Below, in pieces: positions 20,034 to 38,389 of a DNA stretch of 46,443 nucleotides (positions are counted from its first letter, which is position 1; each line of letters begins with the position of its first letter). Source of the stretch: Halorhabdus amylolytica. Lineage in GTDB: Archaea > Halobacteriota > Halobacteria > Halobacteriales > Haloarculaceae. A program made the position numbers and the translations under genes. The stretch covers positions 162,671-209,113 of the forward strand of contig NZ_SPQG01000001.1 of the NCBI RefSeq assembly GCF_004944975.1, written 5' to 3'. The notes below the pieces were generated by a model. That model was not told the origin of the DNA and searched no databases. It saw only the letters and a list, made by a program, of their open reading frames with translations.

Positions 20034-20036
20034 GGT

Positions 20037-21749: not shown

Positions 21750-21750
21750 C

Positions 21751-23331: not shown

Positions 23332-23633
23332 ATCTGTTAGCCCCTGTCTGAACTTACATAAGTTATTCCCCGATCCATTCACTCCAATTATAGGTATATA
23401 GTAATGTAATAAATCTAATTTAAGGACATATGTAGATAGCCAGATCGGCGATATAATCTGTTGTACTCGATGAAACGTTCTGGTCATATAGTAGATGAGA
23501 AGTAATATAAAATCCGTAGATATATAGAAGAGAACATTTCACTCATCCATATTTTTGATATAAAATATTGCGGCCAAGATCATCCTTCAACTGGAGTGGA
23601 GTCGCCGAGTTGTTGAACGGGGAGTGAAAATAT
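23332..23633 (-). promoter_or_regulatory. Strongly AT-rich intergenic region carrying the presumptive promoter of the four-gene bactofilin operon
   Basis: About 300 bp at roughly 30% GC in a high-GC genome, with multiple TATA-like runs (tatatagtaatgtaataaatctaatttaagg, tatataaaatcc, ttttgatataaaatattg). Lies between the kinase stop and the gene A start. Confidence 0.4.
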
Positions 23634-24953
23634 TCACCCGAACAGCTGTTTCAGCAATGAACTGAGAAGTTCGAGCGAACTTCGATTCGACGAATCAGGA
23701 TCATTTGCGGAGATCGTTGATTTAGTTGTCTGAGAGCGCTGTACTCCTGTCGTCTCATCCGAGACATACTCTCGCTTTAGAGTCCCGGCTGTTTCCCCCT
23801 CGAGCCCGGGTGCACGTGTTCGTCGCTGCCAGGGGAATTCTTGTGAGTTGGAAGTTTGTGACTGCTCACGAATGGTATTCAGAACCCCTGGATCACTCGG
23901 ATCACTGCCGAAGTTACTGCCATCGGTAAAGTCTGCGTGACCGGATCGAGTTTTGGAAGAACCACCAACTGACGTCGTATATTCGTCTTCCGGGCTACAG
24001 ATCAGTGATACCGATTCGTCGAGAGCGACTGCTCGAAACAACGACGTCAAGTCACGTCGAAAGTCGAGCATCGACTCGTACCGATCATCCTTGTGAGTGG
24101 CAAGTGCCGTTCCGAGCACGCCATCGACCGCTGCCGGTAGAGTCGGATCGATCGCAGTCGGTTTCTCGGGCGCGTCTGTCAGATGGCGATCCATCATCGT
24201 CTTCGGAGATCCGGAAAACGGTGGATCTCCAGTCAACAGTTCATAGATGACGGTCCCAAGCTGATAGATGTCAGTCCGTTCATCCGGCGACCCGAGCGTC
24301 TCCGGATCGAACTGCTCCGGCGCTGAATAGCGGGGAGAAAGCCCATCGACCTCTCGGGAGTGATGGAGAAGTTGCTTGGCAAGGCCCCAATCGCTGACTT
24401 TCGGAACATCCCACGTTCGTGGCGTGGTCGTTCTGAACAGAATGTTCGCCGGTTTGAGATCAAGATGTGCGACCCCATGCCGGTGTGCGTTCCGGACGGC
24501 GTCGGCGACGCGTGCACCGATCCAGAGGGACTCACCGATCCCGGTGTTGCCGATACGATCGGTAAGATCCCTTGAATCCATATATTCGAGTGCGATCCAA
24601 GGGACTGGCGTCGTATCCCAGTCGATGACACCGACAATGCCGTCGTGATCATCGAGTTTTTCCCACGTTTCAGCTTCGGATACGACGGTCTGAAGGATCC
24701 GCTCATCGAGAGTCCCCTGAACACGAGGTTGTTTGATTGCGATCACCGTATCCGATTGTGGGTCCTCCATTTTCGTCACGTCGGCGGTCCCACCGCTTCC
24801 GATTTGGCCGCGTTCCTGTAGGGACGAAAAATCGATGTCGACTGTCGGTTTCGTTGGGATCTGTTCCGGGATCGTCGCGTATTCCGATGGGTTTAGATCC
24901 ATGAATTCGAAATCACTTTCAGGAGTCAGCCGATTTGCTCGGAACCATCTCAC
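23634..24953 (-). CDS. Hanks-type Ser/Thr protein kinase
   Basis: Glycine loop and Lys (GQIGSGGTADV...IAIKQ). Catalytic loop HLDLKPANILF. DFG-equivalent (SDWG). APE (SAPEQ). S/T-rich disordered C-terminus. Alternative start MDLNPSEY at 24902. Confidence 0.85.
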   Translation of the reverse strand: MRWFRANRLTPESDFEFMDLNPSEYATIPEQIPTKPTVDIDFSSLQERGQIGSGGTADVTKMEDPQSDTVIAIKQPRVQGTLDERILQTVVSEAETWEKLDDHDGIVGVIDWDTTPVPWIALEYMDSRDLTDRIGNTGIGESLWIGARVADAVRNAHRHGVAHLDLKPANILFRTTTPRTWDVPKVSDWGLAKQLLHHSREVDGLSPRYSAPEQFDPETLGSPDERTDIYQLGTVIYELLTGDPPFSGSPKTMMDRHLTDAPEKPTAIDPTLPAAVDGVLGTALATHKDDRYESMLDFRRDLTSLFRAVALDESVSLICSPEDEYTTSVGGSSKTRSGHADFTDGSNFGSDPSDPGVLNTIREQSQTSNSQEFPWQRRTRAPGLEGETAGTLKREYVSDETTGVQRSQTTKSTISANDPDSSNRSSLELLSSLLKQLFG

Positions 24954-25506
24954 CTGTCATTCTCCGCTCCGATGTCGAGCCAGGAATCGAATGTGGGTTC
25001 GTCTTGATGCCAACTGCCACGGGCACAGTGGCCCGCGGCTTGTCAGTGGACTCGCCGCGTCGTGCCGAACGTCCTGTTCGGTGTTCACGGGTCTGCATTC
25101 CTGACTTCGGGGCCGGTTGACTGCGGCCCGTGATCGACGACAACTGTAGGCCGACGACTACTATCAGAATGATTGGATTCCAGGATGATACAAATTGTGG
25201 ATAGTTCGGCCAGTGTCGGCCTCCTCCCCGCCCACGGTGGGGCGAGGAATCCGTCTTGCTACCTAGTTTGAAACGATGCGAACTTGTGATCATGTGTGTG
25301 ATACAGTCTCGCCGTAAATAGTATTTCTCCCAGCGATTTCTCTGGATTGGACGAGACTGCACTGACAAGTGAAAAATGACCCGTATCTGGTTCACCGCCG
25401 GTGGATTTCGGTTGTTGACCGATCGCGACACTGCTGTATCGCTAGCACTGTTTCCGAGGCGGTTCACCCTTTGGTTCCAATCGCAGACTGAACGAGAGCG
25501 TTGCCC

Positions 25507-26280
25507 TCACTCCATATCCGGAAATCCCTTTCCACATTCGGGACACGATCGAGCTGATTCCGGGACGGGTTCACCACAGTAGAGACAGTACTTGGTGCTT
25601 GGGCGATCGTTCTGTGTCGTGTCTTTCTCCGCACAGTCGGGACATACCGGTCCGGTGTAGATCCCATGCTCCTCACAGATGTTCTGTGTGTCGCCGCTTC
25701 GATCGCCACCGACGTGCATCTCGTTGGCGACAGTATCCTGCACATCGCCAGAGGTCTCACCATCGACTTCGAGTTCCTTGGCGACCACGTCCTCGACAGT
25801 GGTCCGCTCATCGACGTTCCGTTGATCGCCCATCACAACGTCACCATCGGCATCGACGTCGCCGTCGATAATATACTCCTCACGGGCTTCCCGTTCGACA
25901 GTCAATCTGAATTCCGTCTGATAGCCGACCTTCAGCACGGCATCTCGTCTGATTCGTGCGCTGAATCCTTTCTCAAGTTCCTTCTGGTCGCCCTCTGTCC
26001 GGATGTGAACTCCATTCGTGTTCCCCTCATTTCGGACCTCGATACATTCCGACTCTGGCTTGATGACTATCGGGGCTTCGTCACCGCTCTCCCTGGAGAC
26101 CGTGACATCTGCAATGCCGAGTGTAACCGTCCGTCCGTCAGTGTTGACCGTGATCTGTTGACCGTTATCCGGATCACGGTAGATCTCTGTGCGTGTCTCG
26201 ATCGGAATCCGCCCCATATTTGTCTCTTCAGTTGATAAGTATCCGTTCATGCCGTCCTTTGTAATCAGTAGCTGATTCAC
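25507..26280 (-). CDS. FHA-like domain protein with a C-terminal double zinc ribbon
   Basis: N-terminal segment GRTVTLGIADVTVSRESG...NEGNTNGVHI resembles the FHA GR...SR(xH)...NGT core. C-terminal CPDC...C.YCGEPVPESARSCPECG zinc ribbons. Start codon ambiguous (26280, 26250 or 26217). Confidence 0.5.
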   Translation of the reverse strand: MNQLLITKDGMNGYLSTEETNMGRIPIETRTEIYRDPDNGQQITVNTDGRTVTLGIADVTVSRESGDEAPIVIKPESECIEVRNEGNTNGVHIRTEGDQKELEKGFSARIRRDAVLKVGYQTEFRLTVEREAREEYIIDGDVDADGDVVMGDQRNVDERTTVEDVVAKELEVDGETSGDVQDTVANEMHVGGDRSGDTQNICEEHGIYTGPVCPDCAEKDTTQNDRPSTKYCLYCGEPVPESARSCPECGKGFPDME

Positions 26281-26636
26281 GTATAAGAAACTGTAGGACT
26301 ATGTTAACTCAGGTGATACAGAATCCGCTCTTCGAGTTGCGATCGAGCGATACGCTGGAACGTGGGATGGTCTGACGACGTCTACCGTCAGTGAAACATT
26401 GTCGGTAGGAAACTGTCCAAGCGTATACAATCGTTACTCGAACGCGACCAGCAATGCGGACGATGTGGCTGAAGAATTTGATAGTGACTTAGATATGTCA
26501 GAACCATCCATCGAGACAGCACCATCCAATCAAACGAGTTTGGAAGGGGTTAGTTGGGGCTTCCATAGCCATCCCTGCCTGGCCTCGCCGTCCCAAACCT
26601 TGTTGAATTAGAATCGTTTCTCGAAAATCCTCCACG

Positions 26637-28793
26637 TCAGGAGAAATCCAACGCTAATCCAAAGTCTTCGAGGTATAACTGCTCTCCCTTGCCGTTCGCC
26701 TCTATCTGATCGAAGGCTTCCCGCGCTACACGCACGTCGAAGCCCTCGTCCTCGACGACTTCCTCCAACAGCACGCTGTCGACACCCGCCTCCGCAAGAT
26801 AGCCCGATCGAATTGCGTCCACACAGGCCTCGACCCGCTCGGCGTCGACAGGAAGTTCATAGAGTCCACGATTGTGAGCCGCAACGCCGTCGCTCTCGTC
26901 GTAGACCAATTCGCCCGTCGAGAGGTCGACCAGCACCAGACTCAGATTGCGACTGTACCGCGTCCGGGCAATCTCACCGGCCTCAACCTGCTGGATCACC
27001 CGGTCGGTCCACCCCGTCGGCGAAGCCACGCCCAGAAGGTAGTGGTAGTCGTTCTGCTGGGCCTCGTAGACAGCGCTGTTGACGACCGATAGCAGATCGT
27101 CCAGATCGGCAGGCGAAGCGTCGAAGCCATTGGTTACGAAGGCTTCGAGATGGGACAGCGTCGCCGCTTCGATGACCATCTCTCGACTGCGCGAGAGACC
27201 CAACAATTTGGAACTCGTAACGAAATACCTGGCTCGTCGATTGAGCGGGTATTCCTCGGGTGCACCGTCAGCGGGCAGGAGTCGATCGAGTCGACCCCGT
27301 TCGTTGAGATGTTCGCTCCGATCGTCCCAGTAACCAGCCGGCACCTCGAAAGAACCATCAGGAGTTTCCACGACAGTAGCGTCGTAGACCGACGTATCGA
27401 AGCGGCCGATATAATCCATCTCCAACAGACGCGCCAGCGATGTTCCAACCGCGTTCTCGGGCAACTCGGCTTCATCGCCAGCCAGCGATTCCCGGACGTT
27501 CTCGACGTCCGATTCGAGGTCTCGCTGACGATCTTCGAGTTCGTCGCTGGCTTGTTCGAGACCCTTGCGTTCGTCGGCCAAGTCATCGACTTCCGAATCG
27601 AGTTCCTGCTGTGTCGCGGACAACTCACCACGCGCCTCTTCGATCCCTTTACGTTCCCCCGCGAGCTCGTCGATCTCGGCTTCGAGATCGTCCTGACGTT
27701 TTTCGAGCCGATCCCGAGCAACTCGGATCCCCTGCCGTTCGCGTTCGAGACTGTCGATCTCGCTCCGGAGTTGTTCGCGTTGTTCACGGAGTGCTTCCAA
27801 CTCTTCTTCGACGACGGCCGTCGTTTCCTCGCGGGCGGAAGCCCGGGCCTGCTCTTTGGTCTCCGCTTTGACCTGCTCCAGTTGCTCGATCTTTCGTTCG
27901 AGCCGTTCCTCTAACTCCGATGTCCGGTCGATTCTGCGAGTGAACGCTTCGAGCATCGCCTCCTGCTCGGCGGAGATATCCTCGCGTTGCTCCTCAAGCT
28001 GGTTGATCTCGCTTCGTATCTCCGACCGATCGACGGTTTCGCTGGTGACTGTCCGCTCCAATCGCTGGAGTTCAGCTTCGAACGTCCGCTGCTGGCTACG
28101 GATGTCCGACTCGATCTCGGCCGAGAGGGACTCGAACTCGGCCTGGATCTCTTCGCGGATCATCGCGCGTTCATCAGCCGATTCCGAGACAGCTTGGACG
28201 GCTGCCTCGATCGACTCAACCATATGCTCGAGTCCGTGGGTCTCGACGTAGACGAAAAAGCCCTGGCGGATCTTCTCTCGGCGCTCCTGGTAGCGATCCA
28301 GAAGCTTTCGCATGACGTCGCTCTGAACGTCTGGCTCGTCCATCAACTCGTCCATATTGGCGATCTGCGTCGAAGTGTACTCGGTGACAAGTTCGTACAC
28401 CTCTCCTTCCATCCGGCGGATCTTCTCCTCGATCTCGTCCTCCGAGAGCACGTCGAAGCGCTTGTACCGCTCGAACTCCAGAACGGCCTGTAGTTCGGTG
28501 TCGACAAAGTCCTCGGTCATCGCCCGCGGGATTGACCCTTCGTCGTAGAAACTCGCCGCGAGGAGAAGTCGTGCCAGCCGGAAGTCCCCGCGAACGTCCT
28601 CGCGCTCGCTGTCGGTCAGTCGGTCATACTCCTTGGAAAACTCCCAGACGAACTCCTCTTCGTCGGCTTTGATACTGTTGTACCGTTCGATGCGATCGCG
28701 GTCGGGCAACTTCTGTAAGGCGGCCAGATCTTCCTCCAGGACGACCGCCGACTCGTGGGTCAACTCCTCGAAACGCTGTTGGAACTCGCTCAT
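26637..28793 (-). CDS. Large coiled-coil protein with internal tandem about 28-aa repeats and a globular C-terminal domain (hypothetical)
   Basis: 718 aa. Central region has repeated LExERxGIExARxELxxxQxxLxxEIDxL units. No Walker motifs. ATG overlaps the stop of the upstream small gene (ATGA). Confidence 0.6.
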   Translation of the reverse strand: MSEFQQRFEELTHESAVVLEEDLAALQKLPDRDRIERYNSIKADEEEFVWEFSKEYDRLTDSEREDVRGDFRLARLLLAASFYDEGSIPRAMTEDFVDTELQAVLEFERYKRFDVLSEDEIEEKIRRMEGEVYELVTEYTSTQIANMDELMDEPDVQSDVMRKLLDRYQERREKIRQGFFVYVETHGLEHMVESIEAAVQAVSESADERAMIREEIQAEFESLSAEIESDIRSQQRTFEAELQRLERTVTSETVDRSEIRSEINQLEEQREDISAEQEAMLEAFTRRIDRTSELEERLERKIEQLEQVKAETKEQARASAREETTAVVEEELEALREQREQLRSEIDSLERERQGIRVARDRLEKRQDDLEAEIDELAGERKGIEEARGELSATQQELDSEVDDLADERKGLEQASDELEDRQRDLESDVENVRESLAGDEAELPENAVGTSLARLLEMDYIGRFDTSVYDATVVETPDGSFEVPAGYWDDRSEHLNERGRLDRLLPADGAPEEYPLNRRARYFVTSSKLLGLSRSREMVIEAATLSHLEAFVTNGFDASPADLDDLLSVVNSAVYEAQQNDYHYLLGVASPTGWTDRVIQQVEAGEIARTRYSRNLSLVLVDLSTGELVYDESDGVAAHNRGLYELPVDAERVEACVDAIRSGYLAEAGVDSVLLEEVVEDEGFDVRVAREAFDQIEANGKGEQLYLEDFGLALDFS

Positions 28794-29332
28794 GGTTGTT
28801 GGCTCTTCGCGTAATCGCTCAGTTCTCGTTCGAAGTACTCCCCGAGGAACGCCGGTGCCGGTGGATATCCCTCGACCTGTATCTCTACCGCCGTCTCGCC
28901 ACCGTCCTCCTCGAGTGCGTAGCTGATGTCGGCCCGTCCCTTCTTCGTGTAGACCTCGTATTCGTTGTGTGCGGCCGACTGGAGGACCGCCTTCTTCTTC
29001 GAGAGCATGTACTCGACGAACGGTTCGACGGTTTCGGCCGGCGCACTCACCCGTTCCGTGACAGTCGTCCGCTCGGGTTCGGCCGTGACGTCGACTGGCT
29101 CGAGGCGGTAAGCCCGGACTTGCTCTTCGGGGACCTTCGAGACGAGCTGTTCGTACATCTCCTCGAGGTCGACGCCTTCCGCGATCCGGGATAGTCCCGA
29201 CAGCGTCGACACTTCCCCTTCGGCGTTGTCGAAGAGATATTCGACACGCTTGCGCTCGGCATCGGAGTCGTAGTCAACCACGAACAGGAACTCGCCGTTG
29301 CTGTCACTGGCCATTGTCACTGAACTCGTCAC
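28790..29332 (-). CDS. Small acidic hypothetical protein, translationally coupled to the coiled-coil gene
   Basis: 180-aa ORF with a 4-nt overlap to the downstream gene. The N-terminal beta-alpha pattern (EFLFVVDYDSDAERKRVEYLF) is not confidently assignable. Confidence 0.5.
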   Translation of the reverse strand: MTSSVTMASDSNGEFLFVVDYDSDAERKRVEYLFDNAEGEVSTLSGLSRIAEGVDLEEMYEQLVSKVPEEQVRAYRLEPVDVTAEPERTTVTERVSAPAETVEPFVEYMLSKKKAVLQSAAHNEYEVYTKKGRADISYALEEDGGETAVEIQVEGYPPAPAFLGEYFERELSDYAKSQQP

Positions 29333-29644
29333 GTATGGGAAGGCTAGTCGACACCGGTCGTTGTGAACAGCCGGCCGGAACAGCTGACATGCCGATCGAT
29401 ATCATCGCTGTCTAACACCTCCAACGCTATATACAAAAGCTTTTCTCCAATCTGGAGGGGAGTGGTTGGGACGAAACGGTTATCGAGCCCATTAAGAGCG
29501 CATATAGCACCAATACCCGGAATAGCTTGCGAGAGAATTACGTGTCCCAGGTATCTCCAAAAAGGAGACTAAGCGTATCGGCCAGACAGTAGATAAATTT
29601 AAGTGGGTCTATATGGATGTGTGTGATGTGGAGACAGACAGACC
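29333..29644. promoter_or_regulatory. Divergent promoter region between the two island gene arrays
   Basis: 312-bp gap that is AT-richer than the flanks. A TATA-like tctatat lies about 30 nt upstream of the ATG at 29645, consistent with a leaderless transcript. ttttgtatatag is on the opposite strand for the minus-strand array. Confidence 0.35.
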
Positions 29645-29923
29645 ATGTCAATCATGCTTTGGACGGGGATCGTCTTTGCGGTGAACGTCGTGATGGGGGC
29701 GGCCCTCATAGCGGGTGTGTTCACACTGATGGAACGTCGAATCACGGTTGGGGCATTCGGCGGGATCGCAGTCGGTGCCGGGATGATCTACGCAGAGGCG
29801 ACGGTCGGCGAAGACATCTTCAGTCCGACGATCACCGAGATGAAGTTCTTGGTCATTGCAGCGGCGGCAGGTGCGGTGCTCGGTGTAACCGCTGTCTTGC
29901 TGGCAATCGAGCCGGAGTTGTAG
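29645..29923 (+). CDS. Small three-TM membrane protein (first gene of plus-strand operon)
   Basis: 92 aa with three hydrophobic helices rich in G/A/V. Confidence 0.5.
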   Translation: MSIMLWTGIVFAVNVVMGAALIAGVFTLMERRITVGAFGGIAVGAGMIYAEATVGEDIFSPTITEMKFLVIAAAAGAVLGVTAVLLAIEPEL

Positions 29924-29986
29924 CCTATCGAGTACAAACTACTAAGAACAAACCGACTGACACAGATTCATAGGGTATCACAAACC

Positions 29987-30661
29987 ATGCAAGTACGCGA
30001 CTGGGTTCAGGATTATTTCGGCGAATCGGCCAACTCACTGCTTGATGAGGGCGTCTACAGCGACGAAGACCTGCGACGTGACAAGATCAAACTCCGAAAG
30101 CAGCGCAACCGTATCGAAGAGGAGATGAACCAATATTCAAGCGAGTACAAGGAACTCCTCCAGAAGGGGGCACAGGCCAACGAACTCAAACGGGAAACCT
30201 ACGCGAAAAAGGCCCAAATCGCCAAGAAGAAGTACAAACTCAAGAAAAAGCAGTACCAGAAAAACAGTGTCATCCTCGGGACCGTCGTTAGCGTCGAAGG
30301 CGCTCGCGAACTCCAGGACATGCACGACGGCGACTCGACGGAAATCGAGTCGCTCATCAGCGAGCGCGATATCGACGTCGAGTCCGTCCAGGAGGACATG
30401 ATGAACCAGATGGTCGAGTTCGATCTGGACATGGAGTTGATGCAAGAAGTTCAAGATGGACTAGACATCGACATCATGACGAGCGATATCGGGACCGAGG
30501 ACAGCGAGGAGATGGAGATGATGGAAGAGATGGCAGCTGGCAAGATCACAGAAGAGGAGATCGAAGTCGAGGAGACCGTCGAGACCGGGTCAGTCGAAGA
30601 CGTCACTCTAGAGGACGACCTCGAGGAGATCGACATCGAAGACGAAGAGATAGAGATCTGA
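29987..30661 (+). CDS. ESCRT-III/Snf7/PspA-superfamily protein (Snf7-like)
   Basis: By eye, the segment LLQKGAQANELKRETYAKKAQIAKKKYKLKKKQYQKNSVILGTVVSVEGARELQD parallels the Snf7/CHMP4 alpha1-alpha2 core (FLTKGNKVMAKNALKKKKTIEQLLSKVEGTMESMEQ) and the PspA ALxkGxEDLAREAL motif. Basic N-terminal half, strongly acidic C-terminal half, ending in an amphipathic acidic Leu/Ile helix (DVTLEDDLEEIDIEDEEIEI) like a MIM. The Lys-rich stretch is atypical for haloarchaeal proteins. Confidence 0.55.
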   Translation: MQVRDWVQDYFGESANSLLDEGVYSDEDLRRDKIKLRKQRNRIEEEMNQYSSEYKELLQKGAQANELKRETYAKKAQIAKKKYKLKKKQYQKNSVILGTVVSVEGARELQDMHDGDSTEIESLISERDIDVESVQEDMMNQMVEFDLDMELMQEVQDGLDIDIMTSDIGTEDSEEMEMMEEMAAGKITEEEIEVEETVETGSVEDVTLEDDLEEIDIEDEEIEI

Positions 30662-30691
30662 TCAACGGGAGTATCCCGCGGGAGTAACTGT

Positions 30692-31831
30692 ATGATCGAA
30701 TCGGAAGCTCAGAAGGAAATCTTAGAGGACAAGTACGAACAATACCGCGGGAAGGCCGATGCTTATCGAGCAAAAGGCGAAGCCGATCGAGCGGCCCGTT
30801 TCTACCGGAAGGCTGCCGAGACGGTCGACCGTATCGCGGACGTCGAGACCAGCGATACGCTCACCGAAAAGCGCCACGACCTCGCCGAGAACCTCCGGAC
30901 AGCTTCGACTCAACTCGAAGAGACCGGCTCGTTGTCGGATGATTCGCCAGTCGAAAACGAGAACGACGAGTCCGACGACGGAAGTGCAGCTCGATCGACG
31001 GGATCAGCGTCGGAAGAGACGGATCACCCGGATGCAGAGCAATTCCTTGCGGATCCGCCGGAGATGAACTTCGGGGATGTTGGAGGGATGAGCGAACTGA
31101 AGGAGACGCTGAAGGACAAGGTGATCGACCCGCTGGAGCGACCGGAACTGTACGAACAGTACGACCTTGGTGTCGTGAACGCGATCTTGCTGTATGGGCC
31201 ACCGGGAACGGGGAAGACCTACGTTACAGAGGCACTCGCGGGCGAACTCGGTTACAACTTCGTCGATGTCAGAGCGACGGATATCACGAGTTCACTCGTC
31301 GGCGAAGCCGCCGACAACGTCGCGGATCTGTTCACGGTCGCTCGTAATCACCAGCCGTGTCTGGTCTTCATCGACGAGATCGACGCTCTGATGCCTTCCC
31401 GAGTAGGTGGATCCCAGAAGACCCAAAGCCAGCGACAGATGGTCAACCAGTTCCTGACTGAGTTGACCGAGACCCGCGGCGAGGACGTCATCGTCGTGGG
31501 GGCGACGAACCTCCCCGATGAGGTCGACGACGCTGCAGTCAGTCGTTTCCAGGAACGCATCGAGGTACCGCCACCGGGCGCATCGGCACGGGCGGCGATA
31601 CTGCGCGTCCACTTTCGGAGCCGGCCGGTCCTTCACGAAGAGATCGACTGGGACCATATCAAAGATCTGACTTCGGGGTACTCCGCTCGGGATTTGGAGA
31701 TCGTCGCCACGGAAGCTGCCCGGATCGCGCTCGAAGAGGCTCGCGAACGTGACGACCTCCAGCCGATCACCCAAAACCATCTGGCCGAAGCGGTCAACGC
31801 GACTGAACCGTCGCTGTCCGGGGGTGGGTGA
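30692..31831 (+). CDS. AAA+ ATPase with an N-terminal MIT-like three-helix domain (Vps4/CdvC-like, meiotic-clade type)
   Basis: Walker A ILLYGPPGTGKTYV. Walker B CLVFIDEIDAL. Sensor-1 VGATNLPDEVD. SRH AVSRFQERIEVPPP (cf. Vps4 RRFEKRIYIPLP). N-terminal 75 aa YRGKADAYRAKGEADRAARFYRKAAETVDRIADVE...LAENLRTASTQLEE resembles a MIT domain, joined by an acidic linker. Located 30 nt downstream of the Snf7-like gene. Confidence 0.8.
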   Translation: MIESEAQKEILEDKYEQYRGKADAYRAKGEADRAARFYRKAAETVDRIADVETSDTLTEKRHDLAENLRTASTQLEETGSLSDDSPVENENDESDDGSAARSTGSASEETDHPDAEQFLADPPEMNFGDVGGMSELKETLKDKVIDPLERPELYEQYDLGVVNAILLYGPPGTGKTYVTEALAGELGYNFVDVRATDITSSLVGEAADNVADLFTVARNHQPCLVFIDEIDALMPSRVGGSQKTQSQRQMVNQFLTELTETRGEDVIVVGATNLPDEVDDAAVSRFQERIEVPPPGASARAAILRVHFRSRPVLHEEIDWDHIKDLTSGYSARDLEIVATEAARIALEEARERDDLQPITQNHLAEAVNATEPSLSGGG

Positions 31832-31832
31832 T

Positions 31833-32621
31833 GTGCCCGCAAAGACTGGAGCATCGCACGCCGTAGCTGCGTTCGTCAGTATCCTGCTTGGCGGCCTCAT
31901 CAGCGATCTCTTGGGCACGTACGCCACGGCGTTCACCGACCTTGGACGGGTCATCGGCAGGCCCGTTGCCAGTACGATCGGGCTCGCAATACCGGCCACG
32001 ACGACCGGCCATCTCCTGATCGCAACGGTACTCGCTTTCGGCTGGGGTGTCGCCTATCATTACGCCCGACATGGAGACGACGACGGCGAAACCGAGAATG
32101 TGGGAGCTCTTTCGAAGAACAGTGGAGTCGATCACCCCTCGAATCCCGACGACAGTGATGGATCCGAGGCGTTAGCCGGTGTTGTCACGGTCGACTACAC
32201 CCCCGATTCAGCACGGACCGCCGACGCGGAAGTCGGATCGTACCTCGAATCCACACTGCGTGACGACGTTCGCCCCAAATTGGCAGCGACACACGACCTG
32301 CTCGTCGACAGAGAACGACGCGAACTCGCCGAGCGTGTGTCATCACTGGCATCGGACATCGAAACGATCGAGCGAGCAATCTCGCCGTCACTCGAGACGA
32401 CAATGCCCGATCCGGGGCGTCGAAATGGACTCAAAGACTCACACAGTGACCTTCTCGAGACAGTAACGGCTCTCCGGGCGAGCACATCTATTCTTGAATC
32501 CGCACTACGAGAGGGGCAACCCGACGTAGCTATCAAGGAGTGTCGATCCCGATACGAGGAACTGCGCGAGGCCAACGAGCGACGTCGACGACTCATCGAA
32601 CAGGCGAGTGAGACTCTATGA
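31833..32621 (+). CDS. Two-TM membrane protein with a cytoplasmic coiled-coil domain
   Basis: ORF 31749..32621. The only plausible start after the AAA stop is GTG at 31833 (GTGATGTG context), 2 nt after the AAA stop. TM helices AVAAFVSILLGGLISDLLG and HLLIATVLAFGWGVAYHYA. Acidic coiled-coil C-terminus. Confidence 0.5.
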   Translation: MPAKTGASHAVAAFVSILLGGLISDLLGTYATAFTDLGRVIGRPVASTIGLAIPATTTGHLLIATVLAFGWGVAYHYARHGDDDGETENVGALSKNSGVDHPSNPDDSDGSEALAGVVTVDYTPDSARTADAEVGSYLESTLRDDVRPKLAATHDLLVDRERRELAERVSSLASDIETIERAISPSLETTMPDPGRRNGLKDSHSDLLETVTALRASTSILESALREGQPDVAIKECRSRYEELREANERRRRLIEQASETL

Positions 32622-32682
32622 GACAGCCAGAAGCGACCAGGATCGTACAGCCAGCTAACGACCGGGCCGGGAGGAAGCGCCA

Positions 32683-34473
32683 ATGAGTACGTGCCCGAGC
32701 TGTGGGACGACGCTGCCCGACGGTGCGTCGTTTTGCAAACATTGTGGGACGGCACTCGAACAGACCTGTCCGGAATGTGGGACGAGTGTCCCCGGGACGG
32801 CGAACTTCTGTCCGAACTGCCGGGCTGAACTCGGCCACGGCGGCGGAGACAGTCGATCAGTTGACGATGGGGCATTCCGGCTCCAGCCCCACGAGTTCGG
32901 ACGCCGGTTGCTCGGCAGCGATCTCGATGCCGACGGCTTGATCGGATGGTTGACTCGGAAGAAAGAAGTCTCGATCGAGACGGGGAACGAAGCACTGTTC
33001 CTAGAGGAGGGGGAGATCGTCGAACGACTCGGTCCCGGAAAGCACGAACTCGAGTCATTGATCCAGCGGCTGAAAGAGCGCCGTCGGGAACAGGAGTCGA
33101 CGATCATCCTCTATGAGGCTCGTGATACAGTCGTCACGATCGAAGAGGAAGTACGGACGGCCGGAGAGTACCCCGTCGCCGTCCAAGCGGAACTCGTCGT
33201 GACGATCGACGATCCCGTCGAGTTCGCAAAGAGTCTCATGGCTGATCGTGGCGACGTGACTGATCAGACGTTCCAGCGTCTCCTGGGCAGTCCCATTCAG
33301 GACGAGCTCGAAGCCACCCTTGTTGAGTACGACCGCGAGGAGCTGTATGGTAACCGAGAGCTGAAGCGGACCGTCCAACAAGACGTCCGACGGGGGGCTC
33401 GCGAGGCGCTCGAACGGCACGGCCTGGGGCTGGTTTCCCTTCGGTCGCTCTCCTTTGCCGACGATCAAGAGCACATCCGCGAGGGGCGCAAGCAGGTCGA
33501 GATCCGCGAGCAGGAAGAAGACATCAGGGACGACGAGGCCCGACTCGATCGTCGGGAACGTGAACGCGAAACCGAGGACGTTGTCCACGAGGCGAACCAG
33601 CGCGTTCGCCGGGAAACCGCCGAGCAATCGGCCGACCACGAGATCGAGACCCAGGCCATCGAACAGGATCACGAAGTCGACGACAAGCAGCGCCGGCACG
33701 AACAGAAGGCCGAGCGCGAAACCGTCGAACACCAGGAAGAGACGAAGACCACCCGCAAGGAGAAGGAAGTCGAACGTCGAGATCTCGAACACGAGCAGGA
33801 CGTCTCCGAGATGGAAGATCTGATGGACCTCAAGAAGCGCAAGGACATGGACGGCCTCGATATCGAGGAACGCGAGGCCGAAATCGAGATGCGCCGGGAG
33901 GAACACGACGTCGAGATGGAGAAAGAACGGTTGGAAGCCCGTGACGAGGTCGATCTGGAGACACTGGCGAGTATGGATGGCGTCGACGAGGCGGTCGCCG
34001 AACTCGCCGAGATCGAGAAGGCCGAGGACCTCACACCGGCCCAGCTCGAAGCCCTCGGCGCAAAGGACAGCGACGAACTCGCCAAAGCTCGCCAGGAGGC
34101 TCACGACGCCGAAGCACAGCGCGAGCGCGTCGAGGACCAAAAGGAGTTCCGCGAGGAGATCAAGGACATGGCCGAGGATTCGATGGATCAAATGCAGGAA
34201 ACGACCGAGTCCGCGATGGACTCCATGGGCGAAACCGGGCGAGCAGCCGCCGAAGACACCGCTGACAACGTGATCGTCTCCGATACCGGCAGCGACGACA
34301 GCGGTGACACGACGATCGTCCAGGGGGGGTCCGGCAGTCAGGAGGATACCGGTGGGAACACTGACGAAACGGATCGCGGCTCAGGAACCGTCGCATGTCC
34401 GGACTGTGGCAGACAGGTCGACCCCGGGGATGACTTCTGTCTGGATTGCGGCCACGAACTCGGAGGTGAGTGA
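32683..34473 (+). CDS. Zinc-ribbon-flanked SPFH/band-7 (flotillin-like) protein with a long E/R-rich coiled coil
   Basis: N-terminal double zinc ribbon (CPSCG...CKHCG...CPECG...CPNC). Central region ILYEARDTVVTIEEEVRTAGEYPVAVQAELVVTIDDPVEFAK...RELKRTVQQDVRRGAREALERHGLGLVSLRSLSF matches the SPFH/prohibitin core pattern. About 200 aa of charged E/R/D helix. C-terminal zinc ribbon (CPDCG...CLDCGHE). Confidence 0.6.
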   Translation: MSTCPSCGTTLPDGASFCKHCGTALEQTCPECGTSVPGTANFCPNCRAELGHGGGDSRSVDDGAFRLQPHEFGRRLLGSDLDADGLIGWLTRKKEVSIETGNEALFLEEGEIVERLGPGKHELESLIQRLKERRREQESTIILYEARDTVVTIEEEVRTAGEYPVAVQAELVVTIDDPVEFAKSLMADRGDVTDQTFQRLLGSPIQDELEATLVEYDREELYGNRELKRTVQQDVRRGAREALERHGLGLVSLRSLSFADDQEHIREGRKQVEIREQEEDIRDDEARLDRRERERETEDVVHEANQRVRRETAEQSADHEIETQAIEQDHEVDDKQRRHEQKAERETVEHQEETKTTRKEKEVERRDLEHEQDVSEMEDLMDLKKRKDMDGLDIEEREAEIEMRREEHDVEMEKERLEARDEVDLETLASMDGVDEAVAELAEIEKAEDLTPAQLEALGAKDSDELAKARQEAHDAEAQRERVEDQKEFREEIKDMAEDSMDQMQETTESAMDSMGETGRAAAEDTADNVIVSDTGSDDSGDTTIVQGGSGSQEDTGGNTDETDRGSGTVACPDCGRQVDPGDDFCLDCGHELGGE

Positions 34474-34474
34474 C

Positions 34475-35236
34475 GTGGAAGCGATCGACCAGCATCGCAA
34501 GACAGCGTTGGACTCGCCGTACTCTCGGGATCGAGAAGAGGCTATCGAAGCACTGACAACGGCCTTTCCGAGCGCCGACGAACGCGATCAACAGCGGATC
34601 GCCGAGACGCTCCGGGAAGTCGCCCTCGAATCGGCTCATCGTGACGAACGTGAACTGGCTAAGGACCGACTGTTCGACTGTTTTGAAAACGAATCGGGGA
34701 CCATAGACACGGTCCTCGTTGGAATGGTGACCGAGATCGCGACCGAGTCGAAGTTCTCCGAGGAACGTCTCGAGGCCATCGACGCACTCCGAGAGATATA
34801 TTCCGAAATCGGCGAGCACCAACGGGATGTCGTCGGGAAGACGCTGGCAGAGATTGCCGGCAACGCGACCCGCGAAGAGGAGCGCCGAAAGGCCAGGCGT
34901 CGCCTCTCGGATGTGGCACGGACCGAACGCGAAGAGTGTGACACAAGCGACAAGGGGGCCGATGAGGCAGTCGATTATCTCGGGGAGTCGCTGGCCGAGC
35001 ACCTCGAAAACGCGGCCACAAAGTCACGCGAGGCGTGTCTACAGCGCGCTGAAGAATTGTTTGAATTCCTCGATGAACAGCCGCTGGATGACGGCAGTTA
35101 CGAGGAAGTACGGGAGGATGTAAAAGAACTGATGGAAGCGCTAGAGATCGTGGATAGTGAAACGCTGGCTGACGATCGCATCGAGCGCGTCGAGCGGATA
35201 TCCGAGAGGACAAAACGGCTCTATGCACGCGCGTGA
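34475..35236 (+). CDS. HEAT/PBS-lyase-like repeat protein
   Basis: ORF 34304..35236. GTG at 34475 lies 2 nt after the upstream stop. Repeated helical hairpins of the form DEReeAiEALtt.....ErdqqRIAEtLrEVA. Confidence 0.5.
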   Translation: MEAIDQHRKTALDSPYSRDREEAIEALTTAFPSADERDQQRIAETLREVALESAHRDERELAKDRLFDCFENESGTIDTVLVGMVTEIATESKFSEERLEAIDALREIYSEIGEHQRDVVGKTLAEIAGNATREEERRKARRRLSDVARTEREECDTSDKGADEAVDYLGESLAEHLENAATKSREACLQRAEELFEFLDEQPLDDGSYEEVREDVKELMEALEIVDSETLADDRIERVERISERTKRLYARA

Positions 35237-35555
35237 GACTCGAAACGGCTACGGCCCTGGACTTTCGCCTCACTACCGAAAGGAATCTCCGTATTGCAAC
35301 TTTGAACGCCTAGTAGCTTCCTTATACTTTCCTCCGCGATGTACATTATTACAGAAAAGTAAGAACGCATGAGCCAGGTGGGACGTTGCTGGCCACGGAT
35401 GACGATTTTCCACGGCGTTTATTGACGAACTCGGCCTTGATCGGGCTGACTCAGCAGACGTGAGCGGACAGATCCCCCCGACGGTGGGATAAGAGAAAAA
35501 CGGTGGTAGAGACCCGTTCGGGATCGAGGGCACCAACGCCCGACTCCCGTTGCGT

Positions 35556-37727
35556 TCACTCGCCGACGATCGGAAGCGTGACAACGACGTGAGTTCCACG
35601 AGCCGCGTCGGCGAATCGCAGGGACCCGCCAGCGTGACTGATGCTATATCGAGCGAGCCAGAGGCCGAGACCAGTTCCGTGTACCACGGGACTCTGCTCG
35701 ACTTGATCTGTCAGTACGGCCTGCTCTTTCGGCGGAATGCCCGGACCGTTGTCCCGGATGTCGATCCGTACCGCGTTGCCATCACGACTGACCTCGACTG
35801 TCACACGTGGCGTATCACTGTCGTTGTGGTCGATTCCGTTTTCGATAAGTTCCGTAAAGGCGTCCTCGAGGATTGGCACTGCTTTGATTTTGACGTCGAT
35901 CGAACAGTGAACGTCGATCTCCGCTTCAGGCGATGACGCTTGGACCGTTTGGATGGCCGCCGAGAGTAACGGCGTGAGAGACATGATCGTCCGTTCGGTG
36001 TTGCCGGTAAGCAGCTCAACAATGTGCCGCTCGGTGTTGATGAGATCGATCACCTCGGTGCCGGTCGTCAAGATCCGATCGGCGGCATCCGAAAGTGTGC
36101 CCTGCGTCTGTTCCCGTAGTACCTCAGCGTTCCCGGTGATGACGTTGAGATCGTTCCGAAGGTTGTGTCGCAGAACGCGACTGAGGACTTGTAGTTGGCG
36201 TTCGCGATTTTTCCGCTGGGTGATGTCCCGGCTGATTGCGACAGTCCCGACAATAGTCCCGGTCCCGTCATAATGTGGATATCGCGTCGTGACGAATGCG
36301 CGTTCTCCGCCGCCTCGAAGTGTTGGTGAGATGGTGTAGTCGATCGCATCTTCTCGTTTGAGTACACGCGTCTTCATTTGCTGGATACGCTCGGCTGTCT
36401 CGTCGTCCATGAACGCAAACTCGTCAGCGCCGAGTAGTTCCGAACGTGGGAGTCCAGCATACTCGACGACGGCATCGTTAACGATCTGGAACGCCCCGTC
36501 TCGATCTTGAAGCATGATCGGGTCCTCGACCCGCTGGACGATCTCCTCGTAGGTCGCGAGTTCGGCCGTCGCTTCTACTCGATCGGTGATGTCGATGAAG
36601 ACTGCTGCGATCCGTTTCCCGTCCAGGGGGTAGGAGGTCACCCGATGGTGCTGATCGAGTGGTTCCGAATAGGCTTCGAAATCGACCCGTTTCCCGTTCA
36701 GTGCAACATCGCCGTACCGAGTGATGAACGGATCCTCGGTCGGATCTTCTGGCAGATCGAACACATCGCTACCTCTTTTCCCCTGAATCTCCTCGGCTTT
36801 GAGTCCCGTGATTCGCTCGAAAGCAGTGTTGACGTCCTCGAACACGTAGTCCACAGCCCGTCCGTCTTCCTCGGTAATGACTCGCTGGATCGCGATCCCG
36901 TTTATGGCGTCCCGAAAGAGCTGTCGGTACGCTCCATCGTCTAGTACTCCATTGTCGCTCTCGCTTTGCCGGGAGGCCGTCGCTTTCGGTTGTGTCCTTT
37001 CACATCCAGTGAGAACGATGACCGCCGCTGGGGCGTTTTGCCAGTTGATTGCGGTCGCGACGTAATCAACCACCCACTGTTGCCCGTCTGCCGTCGTGAT
37101 CGACGCTGTTCCGGAATCGAATACACACTCGCCAGTGGTGATTCGCCGCGTCCACGTTTCAAGGTCGCTAACACCAGGGTCGAACTCGACTGACGATCTG
37201 ACGTCAGTTCCTTCGTCGGTTTCAGCCGGACCGAATTTGACTGTAGCACGACAATTGGCGTAGGTGACGTCTCCCTCTTGACAGACGAAAATCGGGTCCG
37301 GCGCACCATCCAAAATCCCGCCACGGGTCGGTACCGGAGCGGATCGGGTCCGATAGCGTCGGGCAACAGCTTCAATCAGCGACGCCACAGTTTCGATCTC
37401 GTCTTCTGGCGTCACGATATCGGTCGGTCGGGCTGCACTCACCCGATCAACGACCGCGGCGTTTTGCCCTTTGACTCGGACGAATACTGGCAGGACGGGG
37501 TCCAGTGCTCGGGTGATTTCGAGGAGAGTGACCCCATCGACATCAGGGGACGTGGTATCACAAATGAGACAATCGACTGTAGCTGTCTGAAGCTGTTCGA
37601 TCACAGTTTTGATGGTTTTTTCCGCCACGACGTGCATACCGTCCCGCCCAGTGATCTGTGCGATCAATCCATCAGTGGTCCCCGTATCCATTACTGTGAG
37701 GGTCCGAAGGGGCGAGTCCGGTACCAT
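35556..37727 (-). CDS. Multi-PAS sensor histidine kinase with an N-terminal receiver-like domain (hybrid/HTR-like)
   Basis: N-terminal CheY-like fold (VDCLICDTTSPDVDGVTLLEITRAL). Several PAS blocks. H-box VLSRVLRHNLRNDLNV. HATPase_c G-boxes (DNGPGIP, GTGLGL). Confidence 0.8.
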   Translation of the reverse strand: MVPDSPLRTLTVMDTGTTDGLIAQITGRDGMHVVAEKTIKTVIEQLQTATVDCLICDTTSPDVDGVTLLEITRALDPVLPVFVRVKGQNAAVVDRVSAARPTDIVTPEDEIETVASLIEAVARRYRTRSAPVPTRGGILDGAPDPIFVCQEGDVTYANCRATVKFGPAETDEGTDVRSSVEFDPGVSDLETWTRRITTGECVFDSGTASITTADGQQWVVDYVATAINWQNAPAAVIVLTGCERTQPKATASRQSESDNGVLDDGAYRQLFRDAINGIAIQRVITEEDGRAVDYVFEDVNTAFERITGLKAEEIQGKRGSDVFDLPEDPTEDPFITRYGDVALNGKRVDFEAYSEPLDQHHRVTSYPLDGKRIAAVFIDITDRVEATAELATYEEIVQRVEDPIMLQDRDGAFQIVNDAVVEYAGLPRSELLGADEFAFMDDETAERIQQMKTRVLKREDAIDYTISPTLRGGGERAFVTTRYPHYDGTGTIVGTVAISRDITQRKNRERQLQVLSRVLRHNLRNDLNVITGNAEVLREQTQGTLSDAADRILTTGTEVIDLINTERHIVELLTGNTERTIMSLTPLLSAAIQTVQASSPEAEIDVHCSIDVKIKAVPILEDAFTELIENGIDHNDSDTPRVTVEVSRDGNAVRIDIRDNGPGIPPKEQAVLTDQVEQSPVVHGTGLGLWLARYSISHAGGSLRFADAARGTHVVVTLPIVGE

Positions 37728-37993
37728 TCCGTATCACAACTTACGTTCGGACGATAATAGTTCATCCGCCGACTGTGAAATGACGGACGAAGTATGGCTG
37801 GTCATTAACCAGTCGCTGACTCGATTCGGCGCCACGGATCGGCGTGGGAGAGTTCGGCTGGAGGTCCAGTGTCACGACCACGGTCACGTCGACGGGCGTG
37901 AATATGTCGGTCACATTCTCGTATTTAACTCTTGTGGTGATCCGGATCTCCAGTGCTCGCGCGAGGCAGTTTAAGTAGGCTACGGGTGCCACT

Positions 37994-38389
37994 GTGAGCT
38001 ACACCATGAGTTCCGACGTGCACACGGCGACGAGCGTTCCAGAACAGACGGCGGCGAATCCACCGCGGTTCATCGATCCGAGCGATGCCTTCGATACCAT
38101 CCAGGCGGTCACTGGGCGAAAGTGGCACCTCCGGATCGTCTACCACCTGCTCGAAGACGGGCCGATGGGGTTCAGTGTACTCAAGCACTCACTGGACAGC
38201 GTCTCCTCGAAAATGCTTTCGGAGAGTCTTTCCTCGCTGGAGGAGGAACACCTCGTCGCCCGTGAAATCGTCAGCGATCAGCCTGTCCGCGTCGAGTATT
38301 CGTTGACCGACCGGGGCGCAGCACTGGAACCCGCCATCGCGGCACTCCTCAGATGGGACGCCGAGTTCGACTGCGAGGAGGACGACTGA
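37994..38389 (+). CDS. HxlR-family winged-helix transcriptional regulator
   Basis: TGRKWHLRIVYHLLEDGPMGFSVLKHSL...LSSLEEEHLVAREIVSDQPVRVEYSLTDRG is the HxlR/DUF24 signature. Its stop abuts the ATG of the next gene. Confidence 0.8.
   Translation: MSYTMSSDVHTATSVPEQTAANPPRFIDPSDAFDTIQAVTGRKWHLRIVYHLLEDGPMGFSVLKHSLDSVSSKMLSESLSSLEEEHLVAREIVSDQPVRVEYSLTDRGAALEPAIAALLRWDAEFDCEEDD

Follow-up and report, generated by a model that had tools for sequence, protein, structure and literature searches.

The AAA+ ATPase encoded at positions 30692-31831 of the window (the whole 46,443-nucleotide stretch of Halorhabdus amylolytica DNA that was analyzed here) is a Vps4-like protein that is already catalogued, and there is nothing new in its identity. 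On balance, we favor the reading that this ATPase is the motor of a haloarchaeal ESCRT-like module; it is catalogued in the Vps4 family. The covariation of Ser284 and Arg333 in the active site, the pore loop SSLVG, the missing C-terminal helix and beta domain, and the placement of the AAA domain appear to be undescribed. In the literature, we found no experiment reported for any haloarchaeal ESCRT-like system of this type.

Makarova et al. 2024 (mBio 15:e00335-24) list WP_136686784.1 in their Vps4 tree, next to the Halo_FHA representative. In the same work, the haloarchaeal Vps4-family ATPases are assigned to arCOG01307, with a "Halo_FHA" clade that comprises FHA-associated loci, and WP_136686774.1, which is encoded in the locus analyzed here, belongs to arCOG13166, the FHA/CdvA-like signature of the "Halo_FHA" loci. 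The published loci have the same content as the present one, in which the ATPase gene is preceded by an ESCRT-III-like gene and accompanied by genes like those of arCOG09748 and arCOG08177 and by a Ser/Thr kinase gene. The terms "arginine", "pore loop" and "Walker" were not found in the main text of that article, so the active site and the pore loops are apparently not treated there.

Domain architecture of the ATPase

The product of the gene is 100% identical to WP_136686784.1 of H. amylolytica, which is annotated as "ATP-binding protein". The Pfam search detected an AAA domain (PF00004, E-value 5.6e-38) at residues 165-293 and AAA_lid_3 at residues 318-356; the protein contains a single classic-clade AAA cassette, complete with the Walker A, Walker B and sensor 1 motifs and the lid. 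The following features were mapped within the gene:

30692..31831, + strand: MIT-AAA ATPase, 379 aa, WP_136686784.1 (open reading frame from ATG to stop)
30692..30931, + strand: MIT-like three-helix bundle, residues 1-80 (AlphaFold2 model and structural matches)
30932..31045, + strand: acidic Ser/Gly/Asp-rich linker, residues 81-118, poorly conserved (column conservation in the 117-sequence alignment)
31196..31219, + strand: Walker A, GPPGTGKT, residues 169-176 (117-sequence alignment)
31289..31303, + strand: pore loop 1, SSLVG, residues 200-204, without an aromatic residue (invariant in 117/117 sequences)
31361..31384, + strand: Walker B, LVFIDEID, residues 224-231 (117-sequence alignment)
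31502..31546, + strand: sensor 1 (ATN, residues 271-273) through the finger positions Ser284 and Arg285 of the SRH (alignment)
31688..31690, + strand: Arg333, aligned with the Ala of the "GAD" motif, the sensor-2 position (alignment to VAT D2 and covariation)

Walker A, Walker B, sensor 1 and Arg285 are invariant across the family (117 homologues aligned), and the three motifs are located exactly where a sequence-only reading of this DNA had recognized them. The same reading had likened the three predicted N-terminal helices to the MIT domain, and structure prediction bears out this comparison: in the AlphaFold2 model, residues 1-82 form helices 2-27, 31-51 and 55-78 (pLDDT 96.1), and the best natural structural matches of the N-terminal 80 residues are MIT domains. 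The MIT profile specifically picks out the N-termini of the crenarchaeal Vps4/CdvC proteins. In sequence searches with the N-terminus of the ATPase, TPR matches score about as well as MIT; MIT-like bundles look similar to TPR units.

In its overall layout, the ATPase resembles CdvC and Vps4, in which an MIT domain at the N-terminus is likewise joined by a flexible linker to a single classic-clade AAA cassette and its lid. The SRH has no two-residue "xG" insertion in any of them, and the genes come directly after that of a partner with an ESCRT-III-type fold, which forms polymers or, in the present case, is proposed to do so. The AAA region, however, is just 33% identical to that of Sulfolobus acidocaldarius CdvC. 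Other classic-clade ATPases are built differently: Cdc48 and VAT combine an N-terminal double-psi barrel with two tandem AAA cassettes, where the present ATPase has MIT and one cassette, and PAN carries an N-terminal coiled coil and OB fold in place of MIT.

The ESCRT-III-like neighbor and the conserved gene neighborhood

The genes around the ATPase gene are the following:

23634..24953, - strand: Ser/Thr protein kinase, 439 aa
25507..26217, - strand: protein with a C-terminal zinc ribbon
26637..28793, - strand: coiled-coil protein, 718 aa, WP_136686776.1
28790..29314, - strand: 174-aa protein, WP_136686778.1, divergently transcribed
29645..29923, + strand: small hydrophobic protein, 92 aa, WP_136686780.1 (equivalent in the Halapricum and Haloplanus loci)
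29987..30661, + strand: ESCRT-III-like protein, 224 aa, WP_136686782.1 (Foldseek search with the model)
31833..32621, + strand: protein with a hydrophobic N-terminus and a coiled coil, about 262 aa
32683..34473, + strand: Zn-ribbon/coiled-coil/Zn-ribbon protein, 596 aa, WP_136686789.1 (Halapricum counterpart)

The juxtaposition of the MIT-AAA fusion with an ESCRT-III-like gene, which had been proposed from the sequence, holds, with the gene for the 224-aa protein directly upstream; the fold match comes from the structural model, not from the sequence. The model (pLDDT only 64.6) contains helices 26-63, 66-113, 131-158 and 174-183, that is, a long hairpin of alpha1 and alpha2 with shorter helices after it, as in ESCRT-III, PspA and Vipp1. 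The top 16 Foldseek matches in the PDB are all members of the ESCRT-III/Vipp1/PspA superfamily, with E-values of at least 0.4, and the Foldseek probability for the Snf7 core is 0.99. Searches of Pfam and the PDB with single sequences and with the family profile gave no match to Snf7, CdvB or PspA, and the comparison of the family with three CdvB proteins using hhalign yielded a probability of 0.08%. The alpha1/alpha2 hairpin is basic whereas the tail is acidic and ends in a conserved C-terminal helix. This helix (residues 174-183, EEMEMMEEMAAG) is, judging from its sequence, a candidate MIT-binding (MIM) motif; the tail motif (E/D)-(M/L)-x-x-M-E-x-(M/V)-A-A-G is retained between orthologues of the 224-aa protein that are just 30% identical. 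The protein is also 43% identical to the 223-aa product of the gene that adjoins the ATPase gene of A07HN63, which is probably ESS09464_1, a member of arCOG07402 ("ESCRT-III/Snf7 family").

The adjacency of the ATPase and ESCRT-III-like genes is maintained in six loci. When gene order was compared in Haloquadratum, Haloplanus, Halapricum, A07HN63 and one metagenomic relative, the succession of coiled-coil, ~174-aa, small, ESCRT-III-like, ATPase and ~250-aa genes was found to recur in related loci, with the ~174-aa gene missing from loci L005 and L006. Downstream, the gene for the protein of about 262 aa begins 1 nt past the ATPase stop codon, and each related locus examined has a gene of comparable size after that of the ATPase. 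Kinases are also encoded in loci L001, L004, L005 and L006. A CdvA gene was not recognized by Pfam at the locus, which encodes the FHA/CdvA-like protein instead. The 718-aa protein, which shows 67% identity to the 718-aa neighbor in Halapricum and 38% to the neighbor of P0317, an MIT-AAA relative discussed below, probably represents arCOG09748 (C-terminal winged helix); Table S1 of Makarova et al. 2024 includes a Halapricum arCOG09748 protein. The 174-aa protein is predicted to be, probably, a member of arCOG08177 (inactivated Cas2-like and TBP-fold domains) because its position, size and "YDSDAERKRVEYL" motif are like those in Fig. S3 of Makarova et al. 2024. An SPFH identity was considered for the 596-aa zinc-ribbon protein and dropped, as the PDB gave no support for it.

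Could the cluster be an antiviral defense or stress island rather than a membrane remodeling system? It is located within a stretch of lower GC content, and PADLOC reported domain-level matches to IetA-type AAA (118 bits), a PD-T4-6-type kinase and JetC/LmuB-like coiled coils. These matches, however, involve a generic AAA domain, kinase and coiled coil and score below CdvC, CDC48 and PAN (169-176 bits), and PADLOC gave nothing for the ESCRT-III-like, 174-aa, FHA-type and ~262-aa proteins. Furthermore, the core gene order is constant although the chromosomal setting of the locus differs in several genera, and the cluster showed no effector domain, nuclease or otherwise. We consider a defense function highly improbable.

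Arginine finger and sensor 2

The SRH of the ATPase, DDAAVSRFQERIEVPPP, includes Ser284 and Arg285, confirming the earlier observation that one of the two canonical arginine fingers is replaced by serine. Classic-clade AAA proteins normally have Ala at sensor 2, and in the meiotic clade of Vps4 and CdvC, an extra conserved Arg directly precedes the arginine finger, producing an "RR" in the SRH (PMC5039278). The ATPase differs from Vps4 and CdvC in both respects, with Ser at the first SRH arginine and Arg at sensor 2. The extra arginine is absent from this protein even though "RR" is present in 83/117 family members; the first position is Ser in the other 34/117. The substitution occurs in the Halorhabdus/Halapricum/Haloplanus branch and coincides there with an Arg newly acquired by the lid at sensor 2. 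The description of the protein as having a single arginine finger therefore captures the serine and is incomplete, as Ser284 is paired in the family with the gained sensor-2 Arg.

Residues 284 and 333 covary perfectly in the 117-member family (34 S/R and 83 R/S, with 0 mixed states). The relatives P0288 and P0310 (D/R) obey the same rule, and the corresponding counts over 330 AAA domains are 267, 54, 8 and 1. An arginine has apparently been relocated from a trans position, acting across subunits, to a cis position within the subunit, given the alignment that places Arg333 at sensor 2. The active site is probably still functional, with a different wiring. Two layouts occur in the family, probably a trans Arg-Arg finger pair and a single finger combined with a cis sensor-2 arginine.

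AAA proteins of the SpoVK/CbbX/EccA type possess one SRH arginine after Ser (…SRF…) and a sensor-2 arginine, which gives them the active-site layout of the Ser284/Arg333 form, but differ from the haloarchaeal ATPase in their N-terminal domains and genomic contexts. The haloarchaeal family displays both layouts among close orthologues encoded in the same type of locus.

Pore loops and the C-terminal end

Whereas Vps4 and CdvC have K-W-x-G at pore loop 1, the ATPase reads SSLVG, and none of the 117 family members has the aromatic form of this loop (X-Ar-phi-X, e.g. KWMG); the relatives P0317, P0310 and P0351 have SK(Y/W)VG. Vps4_C (PF09336) was not detected in the ATPase by the Pfam search, and the C-terminal helix that follows the lid in Vps4 is absent. 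The family proteins stop 3-9 residues past the "(P/S)SL" motif, in contrast to the CdvC proteins, which have Vps4_C and about 17 further residues. The lid aligns without gaps with CdvC and VAT D2, so the beta domain insert, which serves Vta1 binding in eukaryotic Vps4, is absent as well; CdvC is not known to contain this domain either, and an archaeal Vps4 could hence do without it. Thus, among the domains by which a Vps4 assignment was to be checked, AAA is present (PF00004 and AAA_lid_3), but Vps4_C, the Vps4 pore loop and the beta domain are not. The C-terminus (…SLSGGG; …EAWD in relatives) does not resemble a proteasome-docking motif.

The invariant SSLVG of the family, compared with SK(Y/W)VG in the relatives, and Ser284 of the ATPase would fit a weakened or non-threading switch that binds ATP and its partner but does not translocate polypeptides. 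We regard this as improbable. Walker A, Walker B, sensor 1 and Arg285 are all invariant, as are the pore loop 2 residues K243, S246, Q249 and M250 (117-sequence alignment), and the conservation of pore loop 2 and the Walker motifs argues for an active translocase. Moreover, wherever family members have lost Arg284 they have gained Arg333, a pattern that resembles compensation and not decay. Finally, p97 D1 (P0230 sequence, verified) has SKLAG at the equivalent position, and this non-aromatic loop functions in a substrate-engaging ring.

Relationships of the AAA domain

The membership of the ATPase in the meiotic clade, proposed by the sequence-only reading, is not borne out by our trees, which were built by neighbor-joining distance methods from a sample whose only euryarchaeal Vps4 clade is the haloarchaeal one. 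The clade of Vps4, CdvC, spastin and katanin excludes the ATPase family in 89-95% of the bootstraps; the position as sister to the meiotic clade is weakly favored as the single most common topology (32%, 38% or 59%, according to how sequences were sampled and distances measured; the alternatives received 4-29%). The halophile AAA group is separate from all reference proteins in 100% of the bootstraps. The closest relatives of the ATPase (47-64% identical) are halophile-type AAA proteins, among them a receiver-AAA protein, a CetZ-AAA-AAA protein and tandem AAA proteins, most with RSGRF and the aromatic K-W/Y-V-G pore loop; the SRH of the close relatives reads R-S-G-R, and they have the R-x-G-R-F-D motif in common with Cdc48, VAT, p97 and PAN. 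Because these relatives keep RSGRF, the Vps4-like spacing of the SRH is a two-residue deletion internal to the lineage and not inherited in common with Vps4. The closest relatives do not have the deletion, nor does one near family member (P0284, which retains RRSGRF), and the spacing was therefore rejected as a clade marker.

Cdc48/VAT/p97 and PAN match the AAA domain about as well as CdvC: the NCBIfam scores were 176 bits for CdvC, 173 for CDC48, 171 for PAN and 169 for FtsH, nearly equal values that preclude a clade call from single-sequence searches, and the match to VAT D2 scored 154 bits. Two-domain Cdc48 proteins dominate the PDB phmmer rankings, even those obtained with genuine yeast Vps4. 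Likewise, the search of 1.84 billion representative proteins was swamped by multi-AAA proteins with additive domain scores, and its matches became useful only once the proteins were split into domains; an approximate crenarchaeal CdvC sequence served as a seed only, and real CdvC proteins were retrieved for comparison. In profile-profile comparison with hhalign, the ATPase family scored 438 against Cdc48 D2 and 402 against Cdc48 D1, above the 293 against CdvC.

The hhalign scores, along with the distinctness of the halophile group, the architectures and motifs of its members and the variable SRH indel, would also be compatible with the ATPase being a Vps4 analogue, a halophile-type AAA protein derived from Cdc48-like enzymes that gained its MIT-like bundle independently; the substrate could then be a coiled-coil protein of the cluster (arCOG09748-like or CdvA-like) rather than the ESCRT-III-like protein. 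This we judge unlikely, given the specific recognition of crenarchaeal Vps4/CdvC N-termini by the MIT profile, the frequency of the sister-to-meiotic topology, and the Cdc48-rooted tree of Makarova et al. 2024, which keeps the haloarchaeal sequences with Vps4, albeit in a comparison in which the haloarchaeal group was not set against other AAA families. In addition, P0317, an MIT-AAA relative with the classic SRH, is encoded in the same type of locus, so the association of MIT-AAA with the ESCRT-III-like protein predates the SRH deletion. We are similarly doubtful of a further scenario, in which the haloarchaeal MIT-AAA proteins are not true Vps4 orthologues but a separate motor lineage that emerged from the halophile AAA radiation, serves an ESCRT-III-like polymer and has switched active-site layouts repeatedly.

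A model for the haloarchaeal module

The favored reading, in which the ATPase is the motor of an ESCRT-like module, is underpinned by the domain architecture, the MIT fold, the intact ATP-binding and hydrolysis motifs, the model fold of the neighbor and the conserved gene order; against it are the pore loop 1 without the aromatic residue of Vps4, the missing C-terminal helix, the AAA domain that is not nested within Vps4/CdvC, the negative sequence searches for ESCRT-III in the neighbor together with the weak E-values and low pLDDT of its model, and the likeness of MIT-like bundles to TPR units. Under this model, the 224-aa protein would polymerize on the membrane via its basic helical hairpin, and the MIT domain of the ATPase would bind the conserved short helix in the acidic tail of this partner. 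The AAA cassette would hexamerize, with ATP driving the 224-aa protein through the central pore, and the polymer would thereby be remodeled or recycled, in the manner of Vps4 acting on ESCRT-III. The neighboring Ser/Thr kinase and FHA/CdvA-like protein suggest that recruitment may be under phosphorylation control.

The ATPase does not extend the catalogue of Vps4-family proteins, in which it is already listed; for the haloarchaeal proteins, the label "Vps4" reflects architecture and gene context more than the phylogeny of the AAA domain. Haloarchaea use FtsZ for division, and the question of interest is accordingly what the ESCRT-like module does in these organisms, be it vesicle formation, membrane repair or protein sorting. 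The candidate MIT-binding tail motif and the non-aromatic pore loop provide testable handles, as does the natural pair of layouts, R284/S333 and S284/R333, which can be swapped by mutagenesis. If the family indeed constitutes a separate lineage, it would be a natural system for the rewiring of subunit coupling in AAA rings.

A MIT-AAA ATPase encoded next to an ESCRT-III-like gene

The open reading frame at 30692-31831 (+) is intact and encodes a 379-aa protein identical to WP_136686784.1 of Halorhabdus amylolytica, in which Pfam recognizes one AAA cassette, at E 5.6e-38, plus an AAA lid. The family alignment comprises 117 homologues from Halorhabdus, Halapricum, Haloplanus, Haloquadratum, Halonotius and metagenomes, with 55-93% identity to the query. 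It places the Walker A, Walker B and sensor-1 motifs recognized in the sequence-only reading, as well as the SRH (second region of homology), where Ser occupies one of the canonical Arg positions, as that reading had also noted.

Motifs of the query ATPase in the 117-homologue alignment
Residues 169-176, Walker A
Residues 200-204, pore loop 1
Residues 224-231, Walker B
Residues 271-273, sensor 1
Residues 284 and 285, SRH arginine positions (Ser284 and Arg285 in the query)

The N-terminus, originally described as MIT-like, retains this assignment: the family profile matches the Vps4 MIT chains 2v6y, 2w2u and 4lcb in register (E 0.008-0.08), MIT is the Pfam family matched by the largest number of members (33/49), and the N-terminal profile retrieves the N-termini of dozens of CdvC proteins. 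TPR models score about as well as MIT on this domain, which is to be expected because a MIT domain is similar to one and a half TPR units. On the strength of these profile matches, we assign the N-terminal domain to MIT.

Genomic context

Six loci of different genera share a core gene order in which the ESCRT-III-like gene, initially claimed to lie next to the MIT-AAA gene, precedes it. A Ser/Thr kinase is often encoded near this core cluster, and in the window, gaps of 63, 30, 1 and 61 nt lie between successive genes of the ATPase strand.

Core gene order in the six loci
One strand, coiled-coil protein, ~660-720 aa
Same strand, ~174-aa protein, absent from the metagenomic (L005) and A07HN63 (L006) loci
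ATPase strand, small hydrophobic protein
ATPase strand, ESCRT-III-like protein, ~215-230 aa, after the small hydrophobic protein
ATPase strand, ATPase, then a coiled-coil protein of ~240-260 aa whose N-terminus is hydrophobic

The possibility that the cluster is a defence island was considered as a rival explanation; PADLOC returned generic domain matches only. The stretch that holds the whole cluster (~18000-38000) has a GC content of 0.50-0.61, compared to 0.62-0.66 in most of the upstream flank, and may have been acquired horizontally. Several other genes lie in the neighborhood.

Additional genes around the cluster in the window
20823-21749 (-), 308-aa coiled-coil protein, weak Pfam match to the CdvA-like coiled coil (PF18822, E 0.11, residues 23-111)
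32683-34473 (+), 596-aa protein with double zinc ribbons at either end, a long coiled coil of high charge between them and a weak SPFH/Band_7_1 match (E 0.017)
35556-37727 (-), PAS/HisKA/HATPase sensor kinase adjoining the cluster

The 308-aa coiled-coil gene is located just past the kinase, among other coiled-coil, bactofilin-like and HEAT-like genes. Residues 55-306 of the zinc-ribbon protein yielded no match in a PDB search, and a counterpart of this protein follows the Halapricum cluster (L004 8048-9811); Makarova et al. (2024, PMC10936438) describe SPFH, coiled-coil and Zn-ribbon proteins for methanogen-type loci only. Another sensor kinase adjoins the A07HN63 cluster (L006 8749-9813), and the presence of such kinases beside both clusters may be a coincidence.

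The survey of archaeal ESCRT systems by Makarova et al. (2024, mBio 15:e00335-24, PMC10936438) defined five mostly euryarchaeal Vps4 clades. Its Vps4 tree (Table S1) already includes WP_136686784_1 of H. amylolytica, among haloarchaeal sequences beside the Halo_FHA representative from Natronolimnobius baerhuensis, and a further sequence list, one with Cdc48 proteins in it, contains the same protein (PMC10936438). By exact-sequence look-up, the FHA/CdvA-like arCOG13166 protein listed for H. amylolytica in Table S1 (WP_136686774.1) is the 236-aa product of 25507-26217 (-) in the window. Upstream of the ATPase of the A07HN63 locus (P0066) lies a 223-aa neighbour with 43% identity to the 224-aa ESCRT-III-like protein of the window; judging from consecutive accession numbers, this neighbour is probably ESS09464_1, annotated in Table S1 as arCOG07402, 'ESCRT-III/Snf7 family' (PMC10936438). 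Given that the accession and the locus proteins are found in these tables, the haloarchaeal system is already catalogued as a published computational prediction; our literature search yielded no experimental study of such haloarchaeal systems.

Relationships of the AAA domain

Because similarity scores do not settle the clade of the query ATPase, we assembled a verified reference set consisting of yeast Vps4 (matching PDB 5uie_A over 437/437 residues), human VPS4B, spastin, katanin p60 and p97, M. jannaschii PAN and E. coli FtsH (exact look-up), and real CdvC proteins, and added the 150 nearest cluster representatives from a 1.84-billion-protein library, split into 330 AAA domains. Neither Vps4 nor CdvC is nearest to the family; its closest relatives are acidic, halophile-type AAA proteins with varied N-termini, which look like a radiation of a single AAA module specific to halophiles.

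Halophile-type relatives
P0317 and P0310, MIT-like N-termini
P0288, 404 aa, N-terminal response-regulator receiver domain
P0264, 957 aa, N-terminal CetZ/tubulin domain joined to two AAA cassettes
Many tandem AAA proteins, several with unassigned ~300-aa N-termini

In neighbor-joining (NJ) bootstraps, a distance approach in which the Vps4 family was represented by the yeast and human proteins and CdvC, Vps4, CdvC, spastin and katanin grouped to the exclusion of the family in 89-95% of the replicates, which does not support the proposed membership in the meiotic clade. The halophile group separated from all references in 100%; its placement as the sister of the meiotic clade was the most frequent NJ topology, at 32%, 38% or 59% compared to 4-29% for alternative positions, and is not well supported. 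In hhalign, the family profile scores 438 against Cdc48 D2, 402 against Cdc48 D1 and 293 against CdvC. The ATPase is Vps4-like in architecture and gene context; a rival reading is that of an analogous motor that evolved independently. The observations of the sequence-only reading are confirmed and its interpretation is partly supported.

P0317, which is 47% identical to the query over its full length, comes from an 11.9-kb metagenome contig (L005) with a locus of the same type. Its neighbour there is ESCRT-III-like (30% identity, E 2e-28), another product of the locus is homologous to the coiled-coil protein (38%), and a PP2C phosphatase and a kinase of 862 aa are encoded as well. P0317 combines a classic SRH (KRSGRFDERIEVPPP) with an aromatic pore loop, SKYVG, and its locus appears to be a less derived form of the query's system. 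P0284, a metagenomic fragment of 253 aa that is 70% identical to the AAA region of the query, has the SSLVG pore loop and keeps the classic RRSGRF SRH; therefore the SRH indel changed after the pore loop, or more than once. Together, P0317 and P0284 indicate that the family owes its Vps4-like SRH spacing to a recent deletion of two residues; on this sequence comparison, the spacing is no marker of common ancestry with the meiotic clade.

Two layouts of the active site

Position 284 is Arg in 83 and Ser in 34 of the 117 family members, and position 333 is Ser in exactly the former and Arg in exactly the latter, with no mixed states; only columns 233 and 287 divide the two forms equally cleanly, and they too lie near the active site. 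The 'single arginine finger' of the earlier reading is thus correct with respect to Ser284 of the query, but Ser284 is always paired with Arg333 (34/34). SpoVK/CbbX-type AAA proteins typically combine a single finger with a sensor-2 arginine. In the alignment, position 333 falls on the Ala of the VAT D2 'GAD' motif and accordingly is the sensor-2 position, where classic-clade AAA proteins normally have Ala and other AAA+ clades have Arg (PMC5039278). Two of the relatives, P0288 and P0310, combine Asp at 284 with Arg at 333.

Arg/Lys at finger 1 and sensor 2 in all 330 AAA domains of the representative search
Finger 1 only, 267/330
Sensor 2 only, 54/330
Neither, 8/330, apparently degenerate second cassettes
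Both, 1/330

Far outside the MIT-AAA family too, the first SRH arginine and a sensor-2 arginine are almost mutually exclusive, and giant proteins with 5-6 AAA cassettes follow this rule. The covariation probably means that one arginine that contacts phosphate comes either from across the subunit interface or from the lid of the subunit itself. The Ser284-type members do not form a clade in the NJ tree (4.5% bootstrap, with poor resolution within the family), a hint that the active site might have switched forms more than once.

Predicted function

The sequence-only reading had left the Vps4 pore loop, Vps4_C and beta domain to be checked. All 117 members have SSLVG as pore loop 1, and Pfam and the alignments detect no Vps4_C domain, C-terminal helix or beta domain in the query or the family. 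Thus, unlike Vps4, the family lacks all three elements and has a non-aromatic pore loop. Such a loop has a precedent in p97 D1, a working, substrate-engaging ring with SKLAG at the equivalent position (verified in the P0230 sequence). The reading with the best support is a Vps4-like motor that disassembles the neighbouring ESCRT-III-like polymer; a non-threading switch is a rival to it.

To the catalogued system, the present analysis makes modest additions, namely that two arginine positions covary, that pore loop 1 is non-aromatic and that the 'Vps4' label has a weak basis in phylogeny. As a Vps4-like disassembly motor, the ATPase would be recruited to the ESCRT-III-like polymer by MIT-tail binding and would thread its ESCRT-III-like partner, taking the polymer apart, probably under the control of the kinase and the FHA protein.
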